Under the pieces are notes generated by a model. The model did not search any database. It worked only from the letters and a program-made list of their open reading frames with translations, and was not told where the DNA came from. Shown one piece after another: positions 10,837 to 54,310 of a DNA stretch of 64,000 nt; the stretch's first letter is position 1, and every line of letters starts with the position of its first letter. Source of the stretch: an uncultured Candidatus Binatia bacterium (GTDB lineage Bacteria; Desulfobacterota; Binatia; Bin18); the NCBI GenBank assembly GCA_965200965.1, contig OZ241744.1, positions 864,001 to 928,000 on the forward strand. The letters run 5' to 3'. A program made the position numbers and the translations under genes.

Positions 10837-11505
10837 TTAATCAAGCTTCCGCTCAACCAACTCCTTCAGGAGCGAATTGTCGGCCATCTCTGCAAACTTT
10901 TGATAGTACGATTGGGCCTGCGTGCGATCATTGGTTTTTTCAAAAATCCTGGCCGATGATAAAAAGGCCTGTGACTGCGTCGGACCGTCTATCTCGGCAG
11001 CTTGCATATAACGGCTCTTGGCGAGCGCGATTTCCCCGGCCTGTTCTGCGACCTCGCCCAGCTTGAGCAAAGCCAGTTGCACCAAGTAATGGTCACCGTG
11101 CTTGGCGTCTGCTGCAACGGCTTGGTAGGCCCGAGCCGCTTTCCCAAACTCCCGCTGCTGCTGATAGGCGTGGCCGAGGTGCCACAAGGCCAACTGACGC
11201 GGCTGCCCGCCTAAACGGGCAGCCGCGGTTTCAAAATGCCGAATTGACCCGTCCAGAGCGTCCGGTATCAGGGTTTCTTCTGCACTTGCCGCTAAGCCCG
11301 CTCGCAGGGCTTCTAATCCGCTCGCGGTCTGGTAGTGCCAAAAGAGGCTGACACCGCCCCACACCACTAGCACGACTAGTCCAACGCCAGCCACGGTGGT
11401 CAGCAATCCCTGCCGTGGCTGACTCCAACTCGAAATCTGACGCGCCCATTCAGACAGATGCTCAAAGGGGTAACGAGTTAAGGCCGCTTTTCGTTCGGGG
11501 CGCAT
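10837..11505 (-). CDS. Membrane-anchored TPR protein (YfgM-like)
   Basis: One TM followed by Ala/Leu/Tyr helical TPR-like repeats. Confidence 0.7.
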   Translation of the reverse strand: MRPERKAALTRYPFEHLSEWARQISSWSQPRQGLLTTVAGVGLVVLVVWGGVSLFWHYQTASGLEALRAGLAASAEETLIPDALDGSIRHFETAAARLGGQPRQLALWHLGHAYQQQREFGKAARAYQAVAADAKHGDHYLVQLALLKLGEVAEQAGEIALAKSRYMQAAEIDGPTQSQAFLSSARIFEKTNDRTQAQSYYQKFAEMADNSLLKELVERKLD

Positions 11506-11511
11506 ACCGCT

Positions 11512-12033
11512 CTACATCTTGTATTTGAAATCGTCGGGAGACATTTTTTCAAGAATCTCGGCCCACTTGTCGCGCGAGACATTCGACAGGTTAGTGTCGT
11601 CTTTTTGCCCCTCTTCGATCTGTTGCAACACGCTGGACGCCTCAAGCACCTGCTTGGCTACAAAGATCGGACTTTTGGTCCGTAGGGCTAAGGAAATCGC
11701 ATCGCTGGGGCGAGCATCAATGCTCAGCGTTTTATCCCCGGCCCGCAGGCAAATCGAGGCGTAATAGGTGTTGTCCTTGAGTTCGGTGACCTCAATCAAT
11801 TCAACTTGGCCGCCCAGCTCATCAATCAGCGTACGCAGCAAATCGTGGGTCATGGGCCGCGCCATCTGAATGCTCTCCAGTTCGGTGGCCATGGCTGTGG
11901 CTTCCATAAGACCGATCCAAATCGGCAGATTGAGTTTATTGTCCACATCCTTGAGGATGACGATCGGGGTTTTGGTCATTGGGTCAAGAGTCAACCCCCC
12001 GACACGCATCTCAACAAAATTCTCTCGGGCCAT
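11512..12033 (-). CDS. Bifunctional nuclease (DUF151) family protein
   Basis: PIVILKD, LPIWIG..EA, RPMTHDL, DARPSDAI.LA. Confidence 0.93.
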   Translation of the reverse strand: MARENFVEMRVGGLTLDPMTKTPIVILKDVDNKLNLPIWIGLMEATAMATELESIQMARPMTHDLLRTLIDELGGQVELIEVTELKDNTYYASICLRAGDKTLSIDARPSDAISLALRTKSPIFVAKQVLEASSVLQQIEEGQKDDTNLSNVSRDKWAEILEKMSPDDFKYKM

Positions 12034-38858: not shown

Positions 38859-39617
38859 ATGTGTCGCGCTCGCTCCGCCCTGTATTCGAGCCTCGCCCTG
38901 GCCGGCCTTGCGCTGTTCGCGGGTCTGCTCTGGCCCGCACCGGCCTCAGCCGGACAGATCATCCGCTGCCAGAGCCACGACTACCAGTATAAGCACTGCC
39001 CAACAGGGGGGCGCAGCCGTGTCCGTCTCAGCCGCCAGCTGTCCAGAAGCGCCTGCATCGAAGGCCGGACCTGGGGCTATGACCGCCGCGGCGTCTGGGT
39101 CGATCACGGCTGTGACGCCGAGTTTCGGATTCTCCCCCGACACACCCGCCGCCGCGGCCCGGCCCTGTTTCGCTGCCGCAGTGAACAGTACAGCTACCAG
39201 TACTGCCCCACAGACACCCGCGGCGGCGTCCGCCTCCTCAAACAACGCTCCAAAGCCGCCTGCGTTGAAGGCCAGAGCTGGGGCTATGACCGCCGCGGCG
39301 TCTGGGTCAATCACGGCTGCGACGCCGAGTTTCGGACTCTCCCCCGCCACACCCGCCGCCGCGGCCCGGCCGCCGAGCCTCGGATTCCCCGCCACACCCG
39401 CCGCCGCGGCCCAAGCATCTTCCGCTGCCGCAGTGAACACTATACCTACCAGTACTGCCCCACAGACACCCGCGGCGGCGTCCGCCTCCTCAAACAACGC
39501 TCCAAAGCCGTCTGTGTTGAAGGCCAGAGTTGGGGCTATGACCGCCGCGGCGTCTGGGTCAATCACGGCTGTGACGCCGAGTTTCAGACGGGCGGGTCCG
39601 TCAGCCGGCGACCGTAG
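38859..39617 (+). CDS. Secreted protein with three DUF3011-like Cys-containing repeats
   Basis: Signal peptide; 3x C.S...Y..CPT...Q.S..AC.EG..WGYDRRGVWV.HGCDAEF; PRHTRRRGP linkers. Confidence 0.85.
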   Translation: MCRARSALYSSLALAGLALFAGLLWPAPASAGQIIRCQSHDYQYKHCPTGGRSRVRLSRQLSRSACIEGRTWGYDRRGVWVDHGCDAEFRILPRHTRRRGPALFRCRSEQYSYQYCPTDTRGGVRLLKQRSKAACVEGQSWGYDRRGVWVNHGCDAEFRTLPRHTRRRGPAAEPRIPRHTRRRGPSIFRCRSEHYTYQYCPTDTRGGVRLLKQRSKAVCVEGQSWGYDRRGVWVNHGCDAEFQTGGSVSRRP

Positions 39618-42421: not shown

Positions 42422-43861
42422 TCAGAACCCGGCCGGGCGTGGACAGCCGCCGGCCTGCCTCAGCACATGCCTGGCCAGGTCAAGGCTGGTCCGGTCCTCC
42501 AGATAGGGGCCGACAATCTGAACGCCGACCGGCAGGCCGTTGTCCAGACAGCCGACCGGGACGACGGTCGCCGGCAGATAGCAGGCCCCGGCCGGGGCCA
42601 TCCAGGTAATCATGTCCCAGTAGGGATAGTCCCGGTCGCCGACCCGGACGCTGCGGCCGGCCTGCGGCTCGGAATGGTCGTGGCGAATGGCCGCGCAGGG
42701 CATGACCGGCAGCAGGATGGCGTCCCAGTCCTGGAAAAACTCTTCCCAGCGCTTGCGCATCTGCATCCGACGCTCGTTATAGCTCAGCCACTCCCGGTGG
42801 CGCATGGCCATGAAACGCCGGGTGCGGTCAACGCTGGTGTCGCCGGAGGCCGCGGCATAACGCTCAATGGTGTCACGGGCCACCTCGCCCGAGAGCGCGA
42901 CTTGTAAGAGCGCCTGAAACGTGGTGGCGATTTTTTCCAGGGAGAATGCGGGCCGCGCCTCGGGGTCAAGCCGCACCCCCTCGGCGGACAGCCGACCGGC
43001 CGCGGCTTCGAGCAGGGCCTTGAGCTGCGGCTCAAGCGGACAGCGGGGATCGTCCAGCCAAGCCGCCACCCGGTAGTCTTTGAGCCGCTGCCGGCGGGCC
43101 GGCGGCAACGCCAGCCGCCAAGCCGGCCGCTCCCAGCGGTTCGGCCCGGCCATGATGTCGAGGCCGAGTTCCAGGTCTTCAACGCTGCGGGCCATGGGAC
43201 CGGCAACCGCCAGATCGGCCAGGGTCAGGGTTCCCGGCGGGCCGGGAATCTGGCCGTGGGCCGGCACGATGCCATAACTCGGCTTGTGTCCGACCACGCC
43301 CGACATGTGCGACGGCAGGCGAATTGACCCCCCGATATCGCTGCCCAGTTCCAGGGGCGTCAAACCGCAGGCCAGGGCCGCGGCCGAGCCGCCGGACGAG
43401 CCGCCCGGGGTGCGCTCGGGGTCGTAGGGGTTGTTGGTCGTGCCAAAGACCTTGTTATAGCTTTGCAGGTCGCCGGCATAGAGCGGCAGGTTGGTCTTGC
43501 CAAAGATGACCGCTCCGGCCTCACGCAGCCGGGCAACCGGCCAGGCGTCTTCCCGGGGGACAAAGTCTGCCAACTCGGCAGCCCCCGAGGTGGTCCGCAT
43601 CCCCGCGGTCTGAAAGGAGTCTTTGACCGTCATGGGAACGCCGTGCAGCGGGCCGCGCAGCTCGCCCCGGGCCAAGGCCGCGTCGGCCGCAGCGGCTTCT
43701 GAGCGGGCGCGCTCGGGGTCCCGCGTCACCACGCTGTTGATCGGTGGATCGAGCCTGTCCACCCGCTCGAGGAGGGCGTCGAGCACTTCGCGGCTTGAGA
43801 CCTCCCGCTGACGGATTTTCTGGGCGATTTCGATGGCGGTCGCATACGCCAATGCATCCAT
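42422..43861 (-). CDS. Amidase signature family enzyme
   Basis: GVPMTVKD, GGSSGG, GSDIGGSIR. Confidence 0.93.
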   Translation of the reverse strand: MDALAYATAIEIAQKIRQREVSSREVLDALLERVDRLDPPINSVVTRDPERARSEAAAADAALARGELRGPLHGVPMTVKDSFQTAGMRTTSGAAELADFVPREDAWPVARLREAGAVIFGKTNLPLYAGDLQSYNKVFGTTNNPYDPERTPGGSSGGSAAALACGLTPLELGSDIGGSIRLPSHMSGVVGHKPSYGIVPAHGQIPGPPGTLTLADLAVAGPMARSVEDLELGLDIMAGPNRWERPAWRLALPPARRQRLKDYRVAAWLDDPRCPLEPQLKALLEAAAGRLSAEGVRLDPEARPAFSLEKIATTFQALLQVALSGEVARDTIERYAAASGDTSVDRTRRFMAMRHREWLSYNERRMQMRKRWEEFFQDWDAILLPVMPCAAIRHDHSEPQAGRSVRVGDRDYPYWDMITWMAPAGACYLPATVVPVGCLDNGLPVGVQIVGPYLEDRTSLDLARHVLRQAGGCPRPAGF

Positions 43862-44535: not shown

Positions 44536-44985
44536 TGTGTTTTCCTTCATTGTGCATGGCGGCCGACGCTTCCTCAGCCATGCTTCAATTATCCGCTTCT
44601 TCTTGCAGCAGAATCAAGGAGTTGAGTGACCAGCCCTTCGATTTCGCCGGCAAGGCCGTGTTCGGCCAGGGCCGCCCGGACGCGCTGACGGACGCGGGTA
44701 AAATACTCGCCCGGCGTGCGGGGCAGGCTCTCGACCAAGCCGGCCGCGGTCTGTGCCGCTTGTGTTTTCCTTCATTGTGCATGGCGGCCGACGCTTCCTC
44801 AGCCATGCTTCAATTATCCGCTTCTTCTTGCAGCAGAATCAAGGAGTTGAGTGACCAGCCCTTCGATTTCGCCGGCAAGGCCGTGTTCGGCCAGGGCCGC
44901 CCGGACGCGCTGACGGACGCGGGTAAAATACTCGCCCGGCGTGCGGGGCAGGCTGTCGACCAGGCCGGCCGCGGTCTGTGCCGCT
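44536..44985. repeat. 225-bp tandem duplication including the 3' end of the RM gene
   Basis: 44536-44760 vs 44761-44985; two substitutions seen. Confidence 0.95.
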
Positions 44986-47897
44986 TGGGCTAATGCCTGG
45001 TGCAGGGCGTTAGCGCCCTCAAAGCGCGGGATGGGCAGGTTGAAGACGTATTTGTCAAAGTGGCGCGCGCCCCATTGGCCTTGGGATTGATAGCGGGCGA
45101 CGCCGGTGCGCAGGGTCTTGCTGTTGAAAATCGCGCATAAGTACTGGGCCTCAGCCACATCTTCGACCGCGGCCCAGTACAGTTGATGATCGATGACCGG
45201 AGTCTCGTCCTGAACGACACAGGCGGCAAGATTGGTGCCGGCCTTAGTATACACAACGCGGATCGGCGCGGGCGGGAATTGCTTGGACAGACCCTGGTGA
45301 TAGTCCTGGCGTTCGAGAAAAGTCAGGGCACTGCGCTGATGCCGCTCCCACAGCGTTTCGCTGTTTTTGAGCCATTGCGACAATCGCGGGTAGCCGCGCT
45401 CGGCGGCCCGGGCCGCGTCCATGAGTTCGCCCTCCGCCCACGGAATGACCGCCAGCTGTGGGGCCAGGACGCAGAACGGGGCGATGGACTCACCGAGCAG
45501 CACAGGACGCAGAAACGCCTGCTCAACCGTGCCCTCGGGCGGCGGCAGGGTCTTCCACGGGGCTTTGTCCTGATTGCCAACGCGCCCGCGCACCAGGGGA
45601 AACGCGGGGTTGGGCGGCAGCCTTCCAGAAGTCGTCACCGGCTCAACCAGGACAAAACGGCGGGGAATCAGGGTTGCACCAGCGCGAAAGGCTTTGCGGT
45701 AGGGCGAGCCGGCCGGCTCGGACGAGGCAATGGCCGGCCAGGCCGCGGGGGTTTCGGTCAGGGTGGCGGCGGCCTCTGCCCGGTCGGCGTCTCGCTTGGG
45801 CAGGCTGCCGGCAAAGGCCAGGATGCGGGCCGGCAGCCGCGGCGGGGTGTCGCCGGCCTGGACTTCGGCAAACAGCACACAGCTCGGCACTGGAAACAAA
45901 GGCTGGACCTCGGCTCCGAAGGCCCACGCCTGGGTGAAACGCAGGCGCAAGACCGGCTGACCAAAGCGGGCCACCTCGCCCGCCCTGAACGGCGCGTAGG
46001 CTTGGCGCGACATCGCGGCCTGGGGCAGGATCATGGCCAGCCGGCCGGCCCGGCGCATATACAGGCCGGCGGCACGCATATAGAAATAGCCGGACAAGTC
46101 CTGCTGGGTGGCCACCTTGCCGCCGACCCACAGCCCCGCGGCCCGGCTTTCCTGACGGAAACGCGCCTTGAAATCCCCGCTCATATAGCGGTAGGACACC
46201 CACGGCGGATTACCGATCACCACATCGGCCTTCTGGGCCTCGGAGGCCAGCCACACCGGACGGGCCAGGTTGCGGGCCACATAGCCCCAGATGTGGTTGC
46301 GGCCCTCTTCTTGCAGCCGGCGCATGGTCGTATAGGTGGTCTGGAGAAGATGGCCGTCCCGTTCAGAAGCCGCTCCCTCACGCTCCAGCCAAGCGACAAA
46401 ATGGGCCAGCGGCTCACCACGCGCCCCAAACTCGATCATCGTGTTCAACACCCGGTCAAACAGCGAGGCATCCGAGGCCACCCCGGCCGGGAAGCGCAGC
46501 GTGACCGCGGCGAGCTGTCTGGCCTTAGGCGTGCTGACCGTCATGCCCGGCACAAAGATGTTCAGGGTCTCATTGTCGGCCAGCAGGGGCGGTTGCGCTC
46601 CGATATCACAATCCATCCCGGTCTCAGGCCGGCTCAGGTTCCATTGCAGGGCATCACCCAGGTAGACGGGCACGGCCAGCGCACCCGGATGGCCGCCGGC
46701 GCGCAAGGCCGGCATCAGCGCCAGCAGGTAGGTGACGCGGGCAAAAATGACGGCGACCGGATGGATGTCAATGCCGGCCACCTGCTCCACGGCCCGCTCA
46801 ACCGCCTGGACCGGCGACAGGCCGGCCGCCTCTGCGCCGGCCAGTACGCCGCGGACGGCGTGGAACAGAAAGGCACCCGAGCCGCAGGCCGGGTCCATGA
46901 CGCGCTGCTCCAGCGGCTTGTCCACCGCCGCGGCCACCATGCGGGCCGCCAGCCAGTCGGGCGTGTAGTATTCGCCGAGGTCGTGCCGGGTGTCGGGGTC
47001 AATCAGGCTCTCGTAGAGCGCCTTCATCATGTCAATACGGATATCGCTCAGCCGGAAACGGCCGACCAGGCGCGCAATCTGCATGACCAGTTCGGGCCCG
47101 CCCCGGGCGGCCAATATCCAGTCAAAGAAGTCCGGCTCGCTCTGCCCGCTGATGCCGAGATTCGTAAACGCCTCGCCGTGCAGCAAGGCCGCGGCGTTCG
47201 CCGGCGGCGCGTCGATCATGGCGTTCCAGGCCACCGCTTTGGCGATAACGGCCAGATAGGTGTGCTGCAAAAACAGGGCATCGTCGCCGACCCCGGCCCC
47301 GTAGGCCAGGCTCAGCAGCCGGTTCCACAGCTCGCGCTTCAGGCCCGCCTCGGGCGTCTGGGCCACGCCGGCCCACAACTCGCCGAGCTCGTCAAGTGCG
47401 TGACGGGCGGCAATGCTGTGGCGTCCGAACTCGCGCTGTATGGTGTGTGGCTCGGGCAGCAGCTCGTCGCCAACGGCCACCGCGCTTTGCAGCCAGACCA
47501 GCAGCTCGCGCGACGCCGAGGCGTCCGTGCGATGGCTGTCCGCTTCACGCAGCCGTCCGGCCTTGAGAGAATAGGCCGTGAAGTCAGCCCCATCGGTCGC
47601 CAGCCCCACATAGCGCTTACCGGTGAGGCGCTGGCGGTCGCTCAGATAGCGGCTGAGTTCTTCTTCGGCGTCTCCCCGTTCGCGCCTCAGGTCAGACTTG
47701 AACTCCAGCACGGTACGGCCCAGCAGGGCATCGATCCGGCCGTGCACTTCGGGAACCGGCTTCTCGAAATCCATGTCCCGGCTGTCCGCGCCAAGCCCAT
47801 CAACCATCAGGCGATGGATCAGCACCCGGACTTTTTCGTGACCGGGGCGGGCCGCAAGTTCCGCCACCAGTGCGTCTCTTTCCTCTGGGGTCAGCAT
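44814..47897 (-). CDS. Type IIG-like restriction-modification fusion
   Basis: GRIDA....LEFK nuclease, LGEYYTPDWLA, DPACGSG, GNPPW, C-terminal TRD. Confidence 0.85.
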   Translation of the reverse strand: MLTPEERDALVAELAARPGHEKVRVLIHRLMVDGLGADSRDMDFEKPVPEVHGRIDALLGRTVLEFKSDLRRERGDAEEELSRYLSDRQRLTGKRYVGLATDGADFTAYSLKAGRLREADSHRTDASASRELLVWLQSAVAVGDELLPEPHTIQREFGRHSIAARHALDELGELWAGVAQTPEAGLKRELWNRLLSLAYGAGVGDDALFLQHTYLAVIAKAVAWNAMIDAPPANAAALLHGEAFTNLGISGQSEPDFFDWILAARGGPELVMQIARLVGRFRLSDIRIDMMKALYESLIDPDTRHDLGEYYTPDWLAARMVAAAVDKPLEQRVMDPACGSGAFLFHAVRGVLAGAEAAGLSPVQAVERAVEQVAGIDIHPVAVIFARVTYLLALMPALRAGGHPGALAVPVYLGDALQWNLSRPETGMDCDIGAQPPLLADNETLNIFVPGMTVSTPKARQLAAVTLRFPAGVASDASLFDRVLNTMIEFGARGEPLAHFVAWLEREGAASERDGHLLQTTYTTMRRLQEEGRNHIWGYVARNLARPVWLASEAQKADVVIGNPPWVSYRYMSGDFKARFRQESRAAGLWVGGKVATQQDLSGYFYMRAAGLYMRRAGRLAMILPQAAMSRQAYAPFRAGEVARFGQPVLRLRFTQAWAFGAEVQPLFPVPSCVLFAEVQAGDTPPRLPARILAFAGSLPKRDADRAEAAATLTETPAAWPAIASSEPAGSPYRKAFRAGATLIPRRFVLVEPVTTSGRLPPNPAFPLVRGRVGNQDKAPWKTLPPPEGTVEQAFLRPVLLGESIAPFCVLAPQLAVIPWAEGELMDAARAAERGYPRLSQWLKNSETLWERHQRSALTFLERQDYHQGLSKQFPPAPIRVVYTKAGTNLAACVVQDETPVIDHQLYWAAVEDVAEAQYLCAIFNSKTLRTGVARYQSQGQWGARHFDKYVFNLPIPRFEGANALHQALAQAAQTAAGLVDSLPRTPGEYFTRVRQRVRAALAEHGLAGEIEGLVTQLLDSAARRSG

Positions 47898-47906
47898 GGA
47901 AGGGGA

Positions 47907-48947
47907 TCAGGTCCGTATACGCCTCACATGCATTAAAGCACGGTTTACCTCTTCTACGCACTCACTAACCGCCTCTGCCGTAAACCCGTCATTGAAATGC
48001 CAGGACTCCCCTGGGAAAGGAAGAGCGGGAAGTAAGGGGGGATCGCCTTTGTTAATGACAAGTTTTGGAAGCTTTGGGGGGAGGTCGGAGAGGATTAAGT
48101 TGATATATTCGTCCCGGAAAGCAAAACCGATAAAAATTGCCGCCTTTGCTTCACGCACCACAGCTCGTAGATGGTTATGGAATTTGATGAAGGGTTCCTC
48201 CCCCGGGATTCCCTTGAATCCTGGATATAAAATCGGGATATCCCCGGTAGCGTCGGTGGCACCATAAACGATGTAATCGTTCTCGCGCTTCCAGTCCACG
48301 GACCCGTGTAGCTTGGTCAGTCGTCCGCGACCGTCATCAAGGGGTTTGCCTGGATTATCCCAGAGAGCGGTATTCAGCCCCGTCCTGTCCCCGTCATCCT
48401 CTCGCCCAGTTGCAACCTTTTTTCCGGCTAGCCTGATAACCCTCTCCAGCACCCGGTCATAGTTCGTTGTGAAAATCTCAAGAATCGGGTCAAGCTCTTC
48501 GAGTTTCCGGAGTAGCTCAACCCAAGCTGACAACTTGCCTTCGTCGGGGAGCTTGTCATAGAATTTATGAACTTGGGCATTGATGCGCTCTCGTAGCGGT
48601 TTCAATTTCTGCCCGCAGATGACTGACAACATTAGCGAAACATTGGCAGTATCCACCCCGCTACCCACGAGTTGCCCGAGCTGGTTCCCCGTCGTTATCC
48701 ACCTTAGCATGGAGTTGGAGAAAAACGGTGCTGAGTCGTCTTCAAATTCGCCAAGGGTCCACAGGACTTTTTCAATGTCGATCTGCTCATCAAGTCTCCC
48801 TTGTGTTGTTAGGAACTCACAGACGAGTTGAAACAGGCTATCCCCTGTGATTTCCGGGGGAAGGCGCTTGAAGAACTCAACCGTGGTTGGATACTGCTCT
48901 GGATCAACGGCGGCGGAGCCTCCCGCACCCACAAAAACTAAAATCAT
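47907..48947 (-). CDS. SIR2-like (SIR2_2) domain protein
   Basis: VGAGGS, FTTNYD, KLHGS, IGFAFRD; lower GC than neighbours by eye. Confidence 0.85.
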   Translation of the reverse strand: MILVFVGAGGSAAVDPEQYPTTVEFFKRLPPEITGDSLFQLVCEFLTTQGRLDEQIDIEKVLWTLGEFEDDSAPFFSNSMLRWITTGNQLGQLVGSGVDTANVSLMLSVICGQKLKPLRERINAQVHKFYDKLPDEGKLSAWVELLRKLEELDPILEIFTTNYDRVLERVIRLAGKKVATGREDDGDRTGLNTALWDNPGKPLDDGRGRLTKLHGSVDWKRENDYIVYGATDATGDIPILYPGFKGIPGEEPFIKFHNHLRAVVREAKAAIFIGFAFRDEYINLILSDLPPKLPKLVINKGDPPLLPALPFPGESWHFNDGFTAEAVSECVEEVNRALMHVRRIRT

Positions 48948-49135
48948 CGTCTGTCCTCCTTACAGATTGAGCGTTCCAGATTCATTCAGGCCGGTCAAGC
49001 CTTATGCGTCTGCGTTCTCACCCCATACCCGCCCGTATCTTCCCTGTCGCGGAGGGAATCGCTAGGCCGAGCCGCAGCCGTATGCTACACACGAGGCAGA
49101 CACCACAGCTGCCAGGAGCGGCAAAGGAGGAGGCC

Positions 49136-50092
49136 ATGCAGGAGAGGCATTTTCAGATGATCGAGACAAACGGGATTCGGCTGCGGACCGTTGTCGAAGG
49201 CACGGGCCGACTGGTGATTCTGCTCCACGGCTTCCCCCAGTGCTGGTATTTGTGGCGGCATCAGATTGACCCGCTGCGTGAGGCCGGCTTTCAGGTCGCC
49301 GTCCCCGACCAGCGCGGCTATGGCGGCAGCGACCGGCCTGAAGCGATCGAAGCCTATGATATCATTGAACTGACCAGGGATGTGGTCGGTCTGGCCGACG
49401 CCCTGGGCCACGAGCGGTTTGTGGTGGTCGGCCACGACTGGGGCGCGCCGGTGGCCTGGCACACCGCCCTGCTCTACCCCGAGCGGGTGCGGGCCGTGGT
49501 CGGCATGAGCGTGCCCTATATCCGGGGGCAGGCCGGGGTGATGACCCGGCAGGAGAATTTTGGCGACAACTTCTGGTATATCGTCTATTTTCAGCGGCCG
49601 GGGGTGGCCGAGGCCGAGCTGGAAGCCGATATCCGCAAGTCACTGCGCACCACCTATTATGTTGCCTCTGGTGACGCGCCCGAGGGGGTGTGGTTTACCC
49701 CCAAGCCGGCCAGCGCCGGCTTTCTGGACGGTCTGCCCGACCCCGACCCCTTGCCGGCCTGGCTGACAAGCGAAGACCTCGATTATTACGAAGCCCAGTA
49801 CAGGCGGAGCGGCTTTCGGGGGCCGATCAACTGGTACCGGAATATCGACCGCAACTTTGAGATCACCCCGCAGCTGGCCGAGGCCAAGGTTGAGCCGCCG
49901 GCCTTTTTCATCGCCGGTACAAAAGACCTGGTGCTGTCCTTTGCCGGCGGCGGGATGCTGGAGATGATGGACAGCTTTGTCTCCGACCTGCGCGGCAAGG
50001 TCCTGATTGACGGGGCCGGCCACTGGGTCCAGATGGAGAAACCGGCCGAGCTCAACGCGGCCCTGCTCGGCTTTCTGCGCCCCTTTGCCTGA
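49136..50092 (+). CDS. Epoxide hydrolase-like alpha/beta hydrolase
   Basis: LHGFP, RGYG, GHDWGA, WYRN, GHWVQ. Confidence 0.92.
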   Translation: MQERHFQMIETNGIRLRTVVEGTGRLVILLHGFPQCWYLWRHQIDPLREAGFQVAVPDQRGYGGSDRPEAIEAYDIIELTRDVVGLADALGHERFVVVGHDWGAPVAWHTALLYPERVRAVVGMSVPYIRGQAGVMTRQENFGDNFWYIVYFQRPGVAEAELEADIRKSLRTTYYVASGDAPEGVWFTPKPASAGFLDGLPDPDPLPAWLTSEDLDYYEAQYRRSGFRGPINWYRNIDRNFEITPQLAEAKVEPPAFFIAGTKDLVLSFAGGGMLEMMDSFVSDLRGKVLIDGAGHWVQMEKPAELNAALLGFLRPFA

Positions 50093-52901: not shown

Positions 52902-53891
52902 TCACCCGGCCCGGACTCTTTTGTCACGCGGAAGACTGGCGTCCTTCCCCTTTTCCACGGCTTTGCCAGATGAGAACAACGCCAATTGACTACTGTCATG
53001 CGCCCGGCGCACTGGTATGTCGTCAAGAAGGATACTCCGTGGGTTGACCTCGTAGCAGTGCGACAGCCGACCCTGGGCGTGCTGGCAATACTCCGGGTTC
53101 AGGTCAATGCCGATCCAGCGCCTTTCTGTGACCTTCGCGGCCAGGGTCGTTGCTCCCGATCCGTTAAACATATCGAGTACCAGGTCTCCGGCAAAACCCG
53201 CGTCTGGGGCCTCCTGGAATGAATACATATAGATGAGCCGTTGCGGCAGCACGACCGGAAAGGGAGCCGGGTGGCCTCCGGTGCGCTTCACGTCTTCCGG
53301 ATACATGGGCCAAATCTGCATGGTCAGGTTCCGCCACTCTGCCTGGGTGAGGCGGCTCCGTTCCTTGGCCTTTTTCGGGAGTGGTGGCGGAACGCCGCTT
53401 TTGACATAGACATTGATAAACTCAATCGTGTTGTCTTCATAAATGTTGGGCGGATACGGATAGCTCCCGAACATTTTGGTGGTGGTCTGCTTTTTCCAGA
53501 CCATCAGACCAAAGCGATAGAGTCCGGGGATCTCTTGCAGAATGCGCGCCTCAATATCAAACGCGATGTTTTTGAGGTGGCGCGTGTGTTGATCTCCCAT
53601 CTGGCTCTTGGGAATGGGCATGATTGGCGTGATGATGGCAAGTTTGCCGTTCGGGATCAATATCCGTTCGGTCTCGCGCCAGACTGCGAGGAGGTCATCA
53701 AGATACTCTTCGTAACTTGTCTGCCCGATCTGGCCCTCCACGCGGTAATCAATCACATTCCAGTACGGCGGGCTGGTGATAGCCAGGGCGACGCACTCAT
53801 CTGGCAGTTCGCGGAGCGCTTTTCTCGCATCTGCCCGGATAATGCGGTCCACGCAAGGCCAATGGGCCGGGTCGGGTATTCTGTACTGCAC
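52902..53891 (-). CDS. Orphan N4-C/N6-A DNA methyltransferase (beta class)
   Basis: SD GAGGAGG then GTG; TSPPY, HPAPFP, LDMFNGSG. Confidence 0.9.
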   Translation of the reverse strand: MQYRIPDPAHWPCVDRIIRADARKALRELPDECVALAITSPPYWNVIDYRVEGQIGQTSYEEYLDDLLAVWRETERILIPNGKLAIITPIMPIPKSQMGDQHTRHLKNIAFDIEARILQEIPGLYRFGLMVWKKQTTTKMFGSYPYPPNIYEDNTIEFINVYVKSGVPPPLPKKAKERSRLTQAEWRNLTMQIWPMYPEDVKRTGGHPAPFPVVLPQRLIYMYSFQEAPDAGFAGDLVLDMFNGSGATTLAAKVTERRWIGIDLNPEYCQHAQGRLSHCYEVNPRSILLDDIPVRRAHDSSQLALFSSGKAVEKGKDASLPRDKRVRAG

Positions 53892-54310
53892 GGCGTCAGA
53901 CCTCCTCAGTGGCAAATGTGTGTATGCCGGCCTTGCTGCTGTGTCAGGCGAAGGGGACTTTGAGTTTGGATGTCATGGGGAGAGGCTGGCAGATGGGGGC
54001 GGATATGCTGGAAGGAGGAAATGTGTCATCAGACCGACAGGCTGGCGACACGTTTCGTCCTCGGTCTGGGGCCGTGAACAGGACGGCAAGAAGAATGCTG
54101 CAATCTCCGACTGTAATTGAAGGAGGTTTATGACGAGAGATGACGAAAAACCCGACCTAAGCGCCTGTTTTTATTGAGGTGAATTCGGGGAGGGGGATAA
54201 GAACATTAGTTGAATTTATGAAAAACCCGCCGAAAAATTATCAATTTTTCCGATCAAATTCATAGACAAGGCGTCAATCAGGGCGGTGTGCTCTTCCCTC
54301 ACGGGTCTCC

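Follow-up and report, generated by a model that had tools for sequence, protein, structure and literature searches.

A stand-alone SIR2 gene beside a type IIG restriction-modification gene in a Candidatus Binatia genome: a probable passenger of defense hotspots with a type I past

We analyzed a 64,000-nt stretch (the window) of the genome of an uncultured Candidatus Binatia bacterium (contig OZ241744.1, assembly GCA_965200965.1), in which a gene encoding a stand-alone SIR2-domain protein directly precedes a gene encoding a type IIG restriction-modification (RM) enzyme. According to the reading that we consider probable, the SIR2 gene was acquired separately, as a passenger that formerly stood behind a type I RM operon and now stands before an unrelated, likely self-sufficient IIG gene, and its product is likely a lone, auto-inhibited abortive-infection enzyme destroying NAD+. 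As relatives carry each of the two genes alone, and a remnant of a type I gene precedes SIR2, the two are probably neighbors in a defense hotspot and not a dedicated team. In what follows, G000 is the window genome, other G numbers denote genomes, and L, P and X numbers denote loci, proteins and sequencing runs, respectively.

The previous location of the SIR2 gene is recorded in the adjacent DNA. The segment 55-87 bp upstream of the SIR2 start is translated into the conserved tail of HsdM-S fusion proteins, followed by a stop codon. When a weight matrix built from ten hsdM-S tails (the window scar excluded) was applied to the 7.24 million positions of the genome, this scar ranked second, the first being the end of the hsdM-S gene of G000 itself. 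The spacer between the scar and SIR2 aligns with the spacer between hsdM-S and SIR2 in G025. Therefore, SIR2 used to follow a type I system and came to precede IIG only later. The base composition of the two genes differs as well, as had been pointed out in an earlier reading of the window made from the sequence alone (the sequence-only reading): the GC content is 0.52 in SIR2 and 0.67 in IIG, with 0.615 in the genome, and the GC content at third codon positions (GC3) is 0.565 and 0.79, respectively, the composition of IIG resembling that of the housekeeping flanks.

According to Pfam, the genes around the SIR2-IIG pair encode an amidase and an alpha/beta hydrolase, together with a small unassigned open reading frame (ORF). 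The amidase and hydrolase anchors are separated by 5275 bp in G000 versus 542-860 bp in four of five other congeners, so that the site is empty there (G002 has no hydrolase match). In G007, which is syntenic with the window, IIG is present at the same site with 85% amino acid identity, and an unrelated pair of genes, coding for 145 and 427 aa, occupies the exact stretch from the hydrolase promoter to the IIG start. In the order as a whole (56 genomes), the SIR2 clade is found in eight genomes and IIG in five, both being present only in G000. A maximum-sensitivity search detected SIR2 at none of 11 other loci of the window IIG family (in G007, G014, G060, G057, G040, G172 and G322, and on 4 of 15 plasmids), and the IIG family is present at none of the 21 further SIR2 loci described below. 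The two genes that replace SIR2 in G007 have no Pfam or PADLOC match; the larger one is present at four loci of RM or SIR2, and the two form a candidate defense cassette.

Closely related strains were compared in 4 of the 14 listed runs (X1, X3, X7 and X11); four of the runs containing matching DNA are labeled as sponge metagenome, and no RNA data set is listed among them, which says nothing for or against expression. SIR2 and IIG are joined in an unchanged order by contigs from X3, X7 and X11, runs of three other studies, so that strains of nearly the same species retain the pair. The 3' end of SIR2 beside IIG is swapped for other sequence in X7 and X11, where SIR2 is also more diverged than the flanks. 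The 3' end of IIG is duplicated in tandem in the window, while the second copy of this 225-bp repeat is missing from the X3, X7 and X11 contigs and is collapsed at double depth in X1. We rejected the idea that this repeat is the target-site duplication left by the SIR2-IIG unit, because both copies are downstream of IIG and three strains carry a single copy. Neither the repeat nor the hsdM-S scar was mentioned in the sequence-only reading.

That reading had proposed a candidate two-gene system, in which SIR2 may be an abortive-infection guard triggered by inhibition of RM; as part of a dedicated pair, SIR2 would bind or monitor the IIG enzyme and kill the cell upon its inhibition. The 9-bp gap between genes of one strand and the unchanged gene order in strains of three other studies argue for such a guard, as do a 97% SIR2 cluster and a 99% IIG cluster whose longest contigs have the same length of 59,561 and are likely one contig. 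However, the pair is repeated at none of the 11 IIG loci and 21 SIR2 loci, the congener G007 has different cargo in the slot, and the SIR2 end next to IIG is replaced in two of three other strains. Moreover, the type I scar and the GC3 mismatch point to separate origins, and the IIG family is approximately tenfold larger than the SIR2 family (5767 versus 597 clusters, obtained with different cut-offs). We therefore regard a dedicated SIR2-IIG guard as very improbable and prefer the caveat of the same reading, an independent insertion.

To see where SIR2 relatives are located, we analyzed the genomic context of 21 additional loci. They come from the Binatia order, a metagenome contig, and the taxa around two other genomes (the order in the case of a Chloroflexota genome, the class in that of a Latescibacteria genome). 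Not counted were L107, a duplicate of L032; L113, with no ORF match; and the distant loci L041-L105 and L114-L185, with 24-36% identity and nearly all matches partial. The SIR2 clade is present in 5 of 17 genomes of the Chloroflexota order, with no more in its class (98 genomes), and in 5 of 132 genomes of the Latescibacteria class. An RM gene or its remnant is located within 2 kb of SIR2 at 16 of the 21 loci, in three lineages. This is far above chance, as a random kilobase of G000 is within 1.6 kb of an RM-like match 3.3% of the time; a rarity of SIR2 relatives next to RM genes, which the sequence-only reading had named as speaking against it, is thus not observed. Kin among the 16 loci are not independent and represent perhaps half a dozen events.

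Ten of the RM-adjacent loci contain one type I HsdR/HsdM-S family and one contains another type I system; at four, SIR2 is head-on to an unrelated IIG family, which rules out co-transcription there, and the remaining one has another methylase (with weak Pfam support). In particular, hsdR, hsdM-S and SIR2 stand in tandem at six loci from three lineages, and remnants of this arrangement are observed at four more. No RM match was found at 15 more distant SIR2 loci, seven of them with short flanks; this contrast is biased because the RM queries were derived from the first group of loci. The surroundings of 33 SIR2 loci, 195 ORFs in total, contain no widely recurring non-RM neighbor.

Within the order, the type I M-S gene is present in 15 of 56 genomes and is followed by different genes in almost every case. 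Two of these genomes have intact SIR2 there and one has SIR2 fragments, the other cargo of this slot being PARIS AriAB (G058), reverse transcriptases (one scored as retron I-C), PDC-S19, Schlafen, Vsr with a C5 methylase, SDH protease, ApeA, DUF3644 and unassigned genes. For DUF3226, taken as control cargo, six of the ten best matches (of 30 in all) are at most 5.5 kb from hsdM-S. Monophyly of the six SIR2-linked M-S genes is rejected (approximately unbiased test, p=0.0003, quick tree with G059 left out). The slot itself, as seen in 11 genomes (L251-L261), is hypervariable and also contains bSEFIR, PDC-M38-like pairs and several proteins without a family. In G059, two separate copies of the 3' third of SIR2 (L207:7941-8270, 11101-11559) lie amid other gene-end fragments behind hsdM-S.

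SIR2 can outlive the type I operon. In G005 and G006, approximately the first 21 codons of hsdR sit directly upstream of intact SIR2 (L191:7948-8060 and L190:7210-7319); this joining of the hsdR start to the SIR2 leader indicates that the whole type I operon was deleted in place, the deletion being common to the two species. The ratio of nonsynonymous to synonymous substitution rates (dN/dS) of SIR2 between G005 and G006 is 0.285, and it is 0.33 for a pair with RM present. Of five genomes with SIR2 that were searched for HsdR of this type I family, four gave no match and one gave matches of just 31-36% identity. An intact SIR2 gene under purifying selection without RM, in combination with the lack of a recurring non-RM neighbor, fits a lone gene travelling among RM hotspots.

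The same loci bear on a PrrC-like role, in which the SIR2 subclade would have evolved behind hsdM-S and would fire when phage anti-restriction proteins hit HsdR/HsdM-S, acting in the window genome in trans on its type I locus (G000:C1:457944-463408). The tandem arrangement with its remnants, the window scar and the intact R/M-S locus of G000 are consistent with this role, PrrC and Ronin being the precedents in the available text of the sources. On the other hand, just 2 of the 15 M-S loci found in the order have intact SIR2, the M-S genes linked to SIR2 are dispersed over the tree, SIR2 remains intact in genomes without that HsdR, with purifying selection persisting after the deletion, and four loci face an unrelated IIG gene. 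Moreover, the available part of the preprint describes a constant linkage of Ronin to hsdM and hsdS (bioRxiv 10.1101/2023.04.06.535777), which the window SIR2 does not show. Since the subclade does prefer RM loci, and its slot is shared with known guards, a small probability should be reserved for this role. We give a similarly low rank to a broader variant, in which this subclade of NAD+-hydrolyzing enzymes (NADases) is an RM guard from type I hsdR/hsdM-S operons of three lineages that reads the inhibition of a methyltransferase-containing complex and re-docks on unrelated RM systems such as IIG.

The type I locus of G000 is itself a part of a larger cluster near smpB (G000:C1:452454-463408), where hsdR/hsdM-S are accompanied by low-GC cargo (AAA ATPase with DUF3226, SDH-like and NYN-like genes), and the 3' end of hsdS is duplicated at approximately 453680-453907.

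Both ORFs of the pair are intact and located on the same strand, 9 bp apart, as the sequence-only reading had it. The only Pfam domain of the 346-aa SIR2 protein is SIR2_2 (49.2 bits, cut-off 24.5). The PADLOC search, one of the checks suggested by that reading, yields at most 72.4 bits for SIR2 (model Aga_SIR2), with 55.5 bits for the best 'SIR2' model and 26.4 bits for ThsA, and the top NCBIfam match has 15.8 bits at a cut-off of 500; neither library contains a good model for this family. The family is uniform in size (330-360 aa) and comprises 597 clusters at 90% identity, or 302 clusters at 50% identity with E<=1e-30, in which the catalytic residues are kept; motifs GAGxS, TTNY and KLHGS are invariant in the family alignment.

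The AlphaFold model of SIR2 has a mean predicted local distance difference test score of 85.6. The closest profile match is the SIR2-HerA NADase 8w9l (E=9e-18), and the closest Foldseek matches are the SIR2-HerA NADases 8yhx, 8wld and 8sub (template modeling score up to 0.64). Residues N162, D164 and H214 align to N163, D165 and H212 of the Paenibacillus SIR2-HerA SIR2, which the available text of the source describes as putative catalytic residues of a protein auto-inhibited on its own and requiring HerA (PMC11472057). By homology, the window SIR2 is likely an NADase. Its earlier description as a partnerless protein of a defense type agrees with these results, and its catalytic residues are conserved.

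An atlas search with SIR2 returned generic SIR2_2 clusters only. Relatives were found at three viral loci (25-29% identity) and on one plasmid (28%), which is not one of the 15 IIG-bearing plasmids, and carriage of SIR2 by phages or plasmids was rejected on these grounds. Fused SIR2-RM forms were not found among proteins of 607-2000 aa, which is weak evidence. Several near-length matches are SIR2-TPR fusions, and many close relatives (P0026, P0041, P0048, P0051, P0056, P0060, P0063, P0068 and others) have TPR repeats, possibly a sensor add-on.

The sequence-only reading had also stated that HerA, pAgo, TIR and STAND partners are lacking. For HerA and Piwi this applies to the whole genome, as DUF87/HerA and Piwi have no match anywhere in G000 (99.3% complete), and HerA or pAgo acting in trans was rejected accordingly; for TIR and STAND it applies to the genes neighboring SIR2, among which neither was seen. 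These data are relevant to the possibility that SIR2 is an orphan effector that depends on an unlinked activator, either a distant ATPase or a nucleotide signal of the Thoeris or Kongming kind, and is silent here without it, or that SIR2 is a non-defense sirtuin. Auto-inhibition and HerA dependence of the nearest solved relative, the lack of a visible sensor domain and the broken SIR2 copies in G003, G059 and G612 are in line with it. Yet DUF87/HerA and Piwi have no match in G000, DUF87 has no match in G005, G006 and G025, the surroundings of SIR2 contain no conserved non-RM neighbor, the large family retains its size and catalytic residues, and SIR2 co-occurs with defense cargo. We consider an orphan effector unlikely.

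G000 has a second SIR2 gene (G000:C1:3573705-3576286, L274), with 452.9 bits on the PADLOC 'SIR2' model. In the ORF after it, the first 87 residues resemble the HerA N-terminus (by eye) and are fused in frame to a beta-class methylase-HNH; as none of the matches listed in the 56 genomes covers these 87 residues, it is likely a broken SIR2-HerA locus.

The 1027-aa IIG protein matches Pfam N6_Mtase and Eco57I, and PADLOC REase_MTase_IIG with 244.6 bits. PD-(D/E)XK-like residues E45, D56, E65 and K67, methyltransferase motif I DPACGSG (D335/G339/G341) and motif IV NPPW (N563-P-P-W) are invariant in 83 sequences. Hence, the nuclease and methyltransferase parts of the earlier annotation are borne out by motifs, while its target recognition domain is a label derived from position, since no Pfam model matches the C-terminal third of the protein (nothing beyond residue 637), a region conserved in the family. 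A plasmid homolog with 38% identity is annotated as BseRI, and the window enzyme resembles BseRI-like type IIG enzymes in being a single chain of approximately 1020 aa with a nuclease and a gamma-class N6-methyladenine methyltransferase; no close solved structure was found for it.

The favored reading, an independently acquired passenger, suggests the following order of events. IIG may have entered the amidase-hydrolase site in the common ancestor of G000 and G007, and SIR2 would have arrived then, bringing the short hsdM-S tail. By homology, SIR2 would be restrained by its small helical domain, would probably oligomerize, and would drain NAD+ once a phage cue switches it on. The IIG enzyme would restrict and methylate on its own. 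The two genes may share a transcript, forming a layered defense whose effects add up without contact of the proteins; a promoter scan, which was uninformative, found no sigma-70-like promoter upstream of SIR2.

Several observations weigh against this reading. The gap between the genes is only 9 bp, IIG has no clear ribosome-binding site of its own here, and the pair keeps its order in the three runs mentioned above. Moreover, the closest SIR2 relatives (P0003-P0010, 63-97% identity), which together with the window SIR2 form a well-supported clade (quick tree only), may all adjoin IIG. As for the type I past, the synonymous divergence of SIR2 between G005 and G006 (0.34) exceeds that of the neighboring gene (0.15), and so a part of the divergence may predate the RM deletion; the known guards PARIS and retron occupy the same hsdM-S slot. 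Neither Pfam nor the structure model reveals a recognizable sensor domain in the 346 aa of SIR2, and the nearest relative of known structure needs HerA for activity, according to the available part of PMC11472057. Finally, the proximity to RM in three lineages and at none of the 15 distant loci could mean RM specialization.

Among known systems, SIR2-HerA (Gao_19/Nezha) provides the best sequence and structure matches to the window SIR2, with the same size, a small helical domain and the catalytic N/D/H. Unlike SIR2-HerA, none of the 33 SIR2 loci has herA nearby, the gene being absent from G000 as well; the identity in structural alignments is 15-18%, and the PADLOC 'SIR2' score is far below that of the other SIR2 of G000. 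In S. thermophilus, SIR2-HerA is located between or downstream of RM systems, as stated in the accessible portion of PMC11514479.

PrrC, Ronin and PARIS are similar in that an effector gene is lodged in or behind RM genes and enriched at RM loci (the control cargo is enriched too), and PARIS AriAB fills the same type I slot. The effectors differ, being HEPN, membrane or TOPRIM toxins there and SIR2 here; moreover, the linkage of SIR2 to any one RM family is loose, and SIR2 survives the RM deletion intact. Variable accessory genes at RM loci, with PrrC as the studied case (PMC3632139), the listing of ApeA and EC042_2821/DUF3644 as embedded in RM operons (PMC3710099), and a review of fixed anchors with variable content and of RM guardians (PMC12707154) are all known from the portions of these sources at hand. 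The arrangement of variable cargo between fixed anchors, with ApeA, EC042_2821/DUF3644 and Abi genes and the enteric immigration control region as examples, is the same in the window, but the SIR2 family is not named in the available parts of these three papers.

The SIR2 NADase domain is shared with SPARSA and long-B pAgo SIR2 proteins, Thoeris ThsA and DSR2, the PADLOC matches being weak. SPARSA and pAgo-SIR2 differ from the window case, where G000 lacks Piwi and SIR2 lacks APAZ. In type I Thoeris and DSR2, SIR2 is fused to SLOG or to a long sensor domain, and Thoeris includes ThsB; the window SIR2 has neither SLOG nor a long sensor region, and no ThsB was seen among its neighbors. Titles and abstract openings (subscription papers being largely uncovered) contain no published description of a stand-alone SIR2 with IIG or HsdM-S, and no NAD+-depleting counterpart of PrrC turned up in these literature searches.

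The features of the locus are listed below. Elsewhere in the window, a solitary low-GC N4/N6 DNA methylase is encoded at 52902-53915 and is found in the same place in G007, and an ORF at 38859-39617 has a signal-peptide-like start and three internal repeats, this repeat structure being kept in G007.

Table. Positions of the features discussed (window coordinates, or locus coordinates where an L number is given)
Feature	Position	Strand	Basis
SIR2_2 protein, stand-alone, 346 aa, likely NADase	47907..48947	-	Pfam, family alignment, structure model
Type IIG nuclease-methyltransferase fusion, 1027 aa	44814..47897	-	Pfam, PADLOC, family alignment
9-bp gap from SIR2 stop to IIG start	47898..47906	-	junction-side sequence differs in other strains
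Scar: final 10 codons and stop of type I hsdM-S fusion gene (GRVWGE tail)	49002..49034	-	weight matrix
Shine-Dalgarno-like AAGGAGG preceding SIR2 start	48955..48961	-	sequence
225-bp tandem duplication (2 mismatches) of IIG 3' end, strain-specific	44537..44986	.	sequence and contigs of other strains
Alpha/beta hydrolase, right anchor of variable slot (start set by homology)	49136..50092	+	
Amidase, left anchor of variable slot	42422..43861	-	
Sites of 145-aa/427-aa genes	L186:5327-6966; L191:4916-6582; L208:12746-14263; L106:6657-8174		

As the pairing is local, a SIR2-IIG system is of little importance. What remains significant is a widespread SIR2 family with no fixed partner or sensor domain, best read as an unnamed single-gene family, likely of abortive-infection NADases, riding RM hotspots. 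If SIR2 defends alone, its trigger becomes a mechanistic question, since the closest solved relatives need HerA; if instead it guards RM, NAD+ depletion would join the known anti-anti-restriction responses. In either case, the hsdM-S slot in these genomes is a ready source of candidate defense genes.

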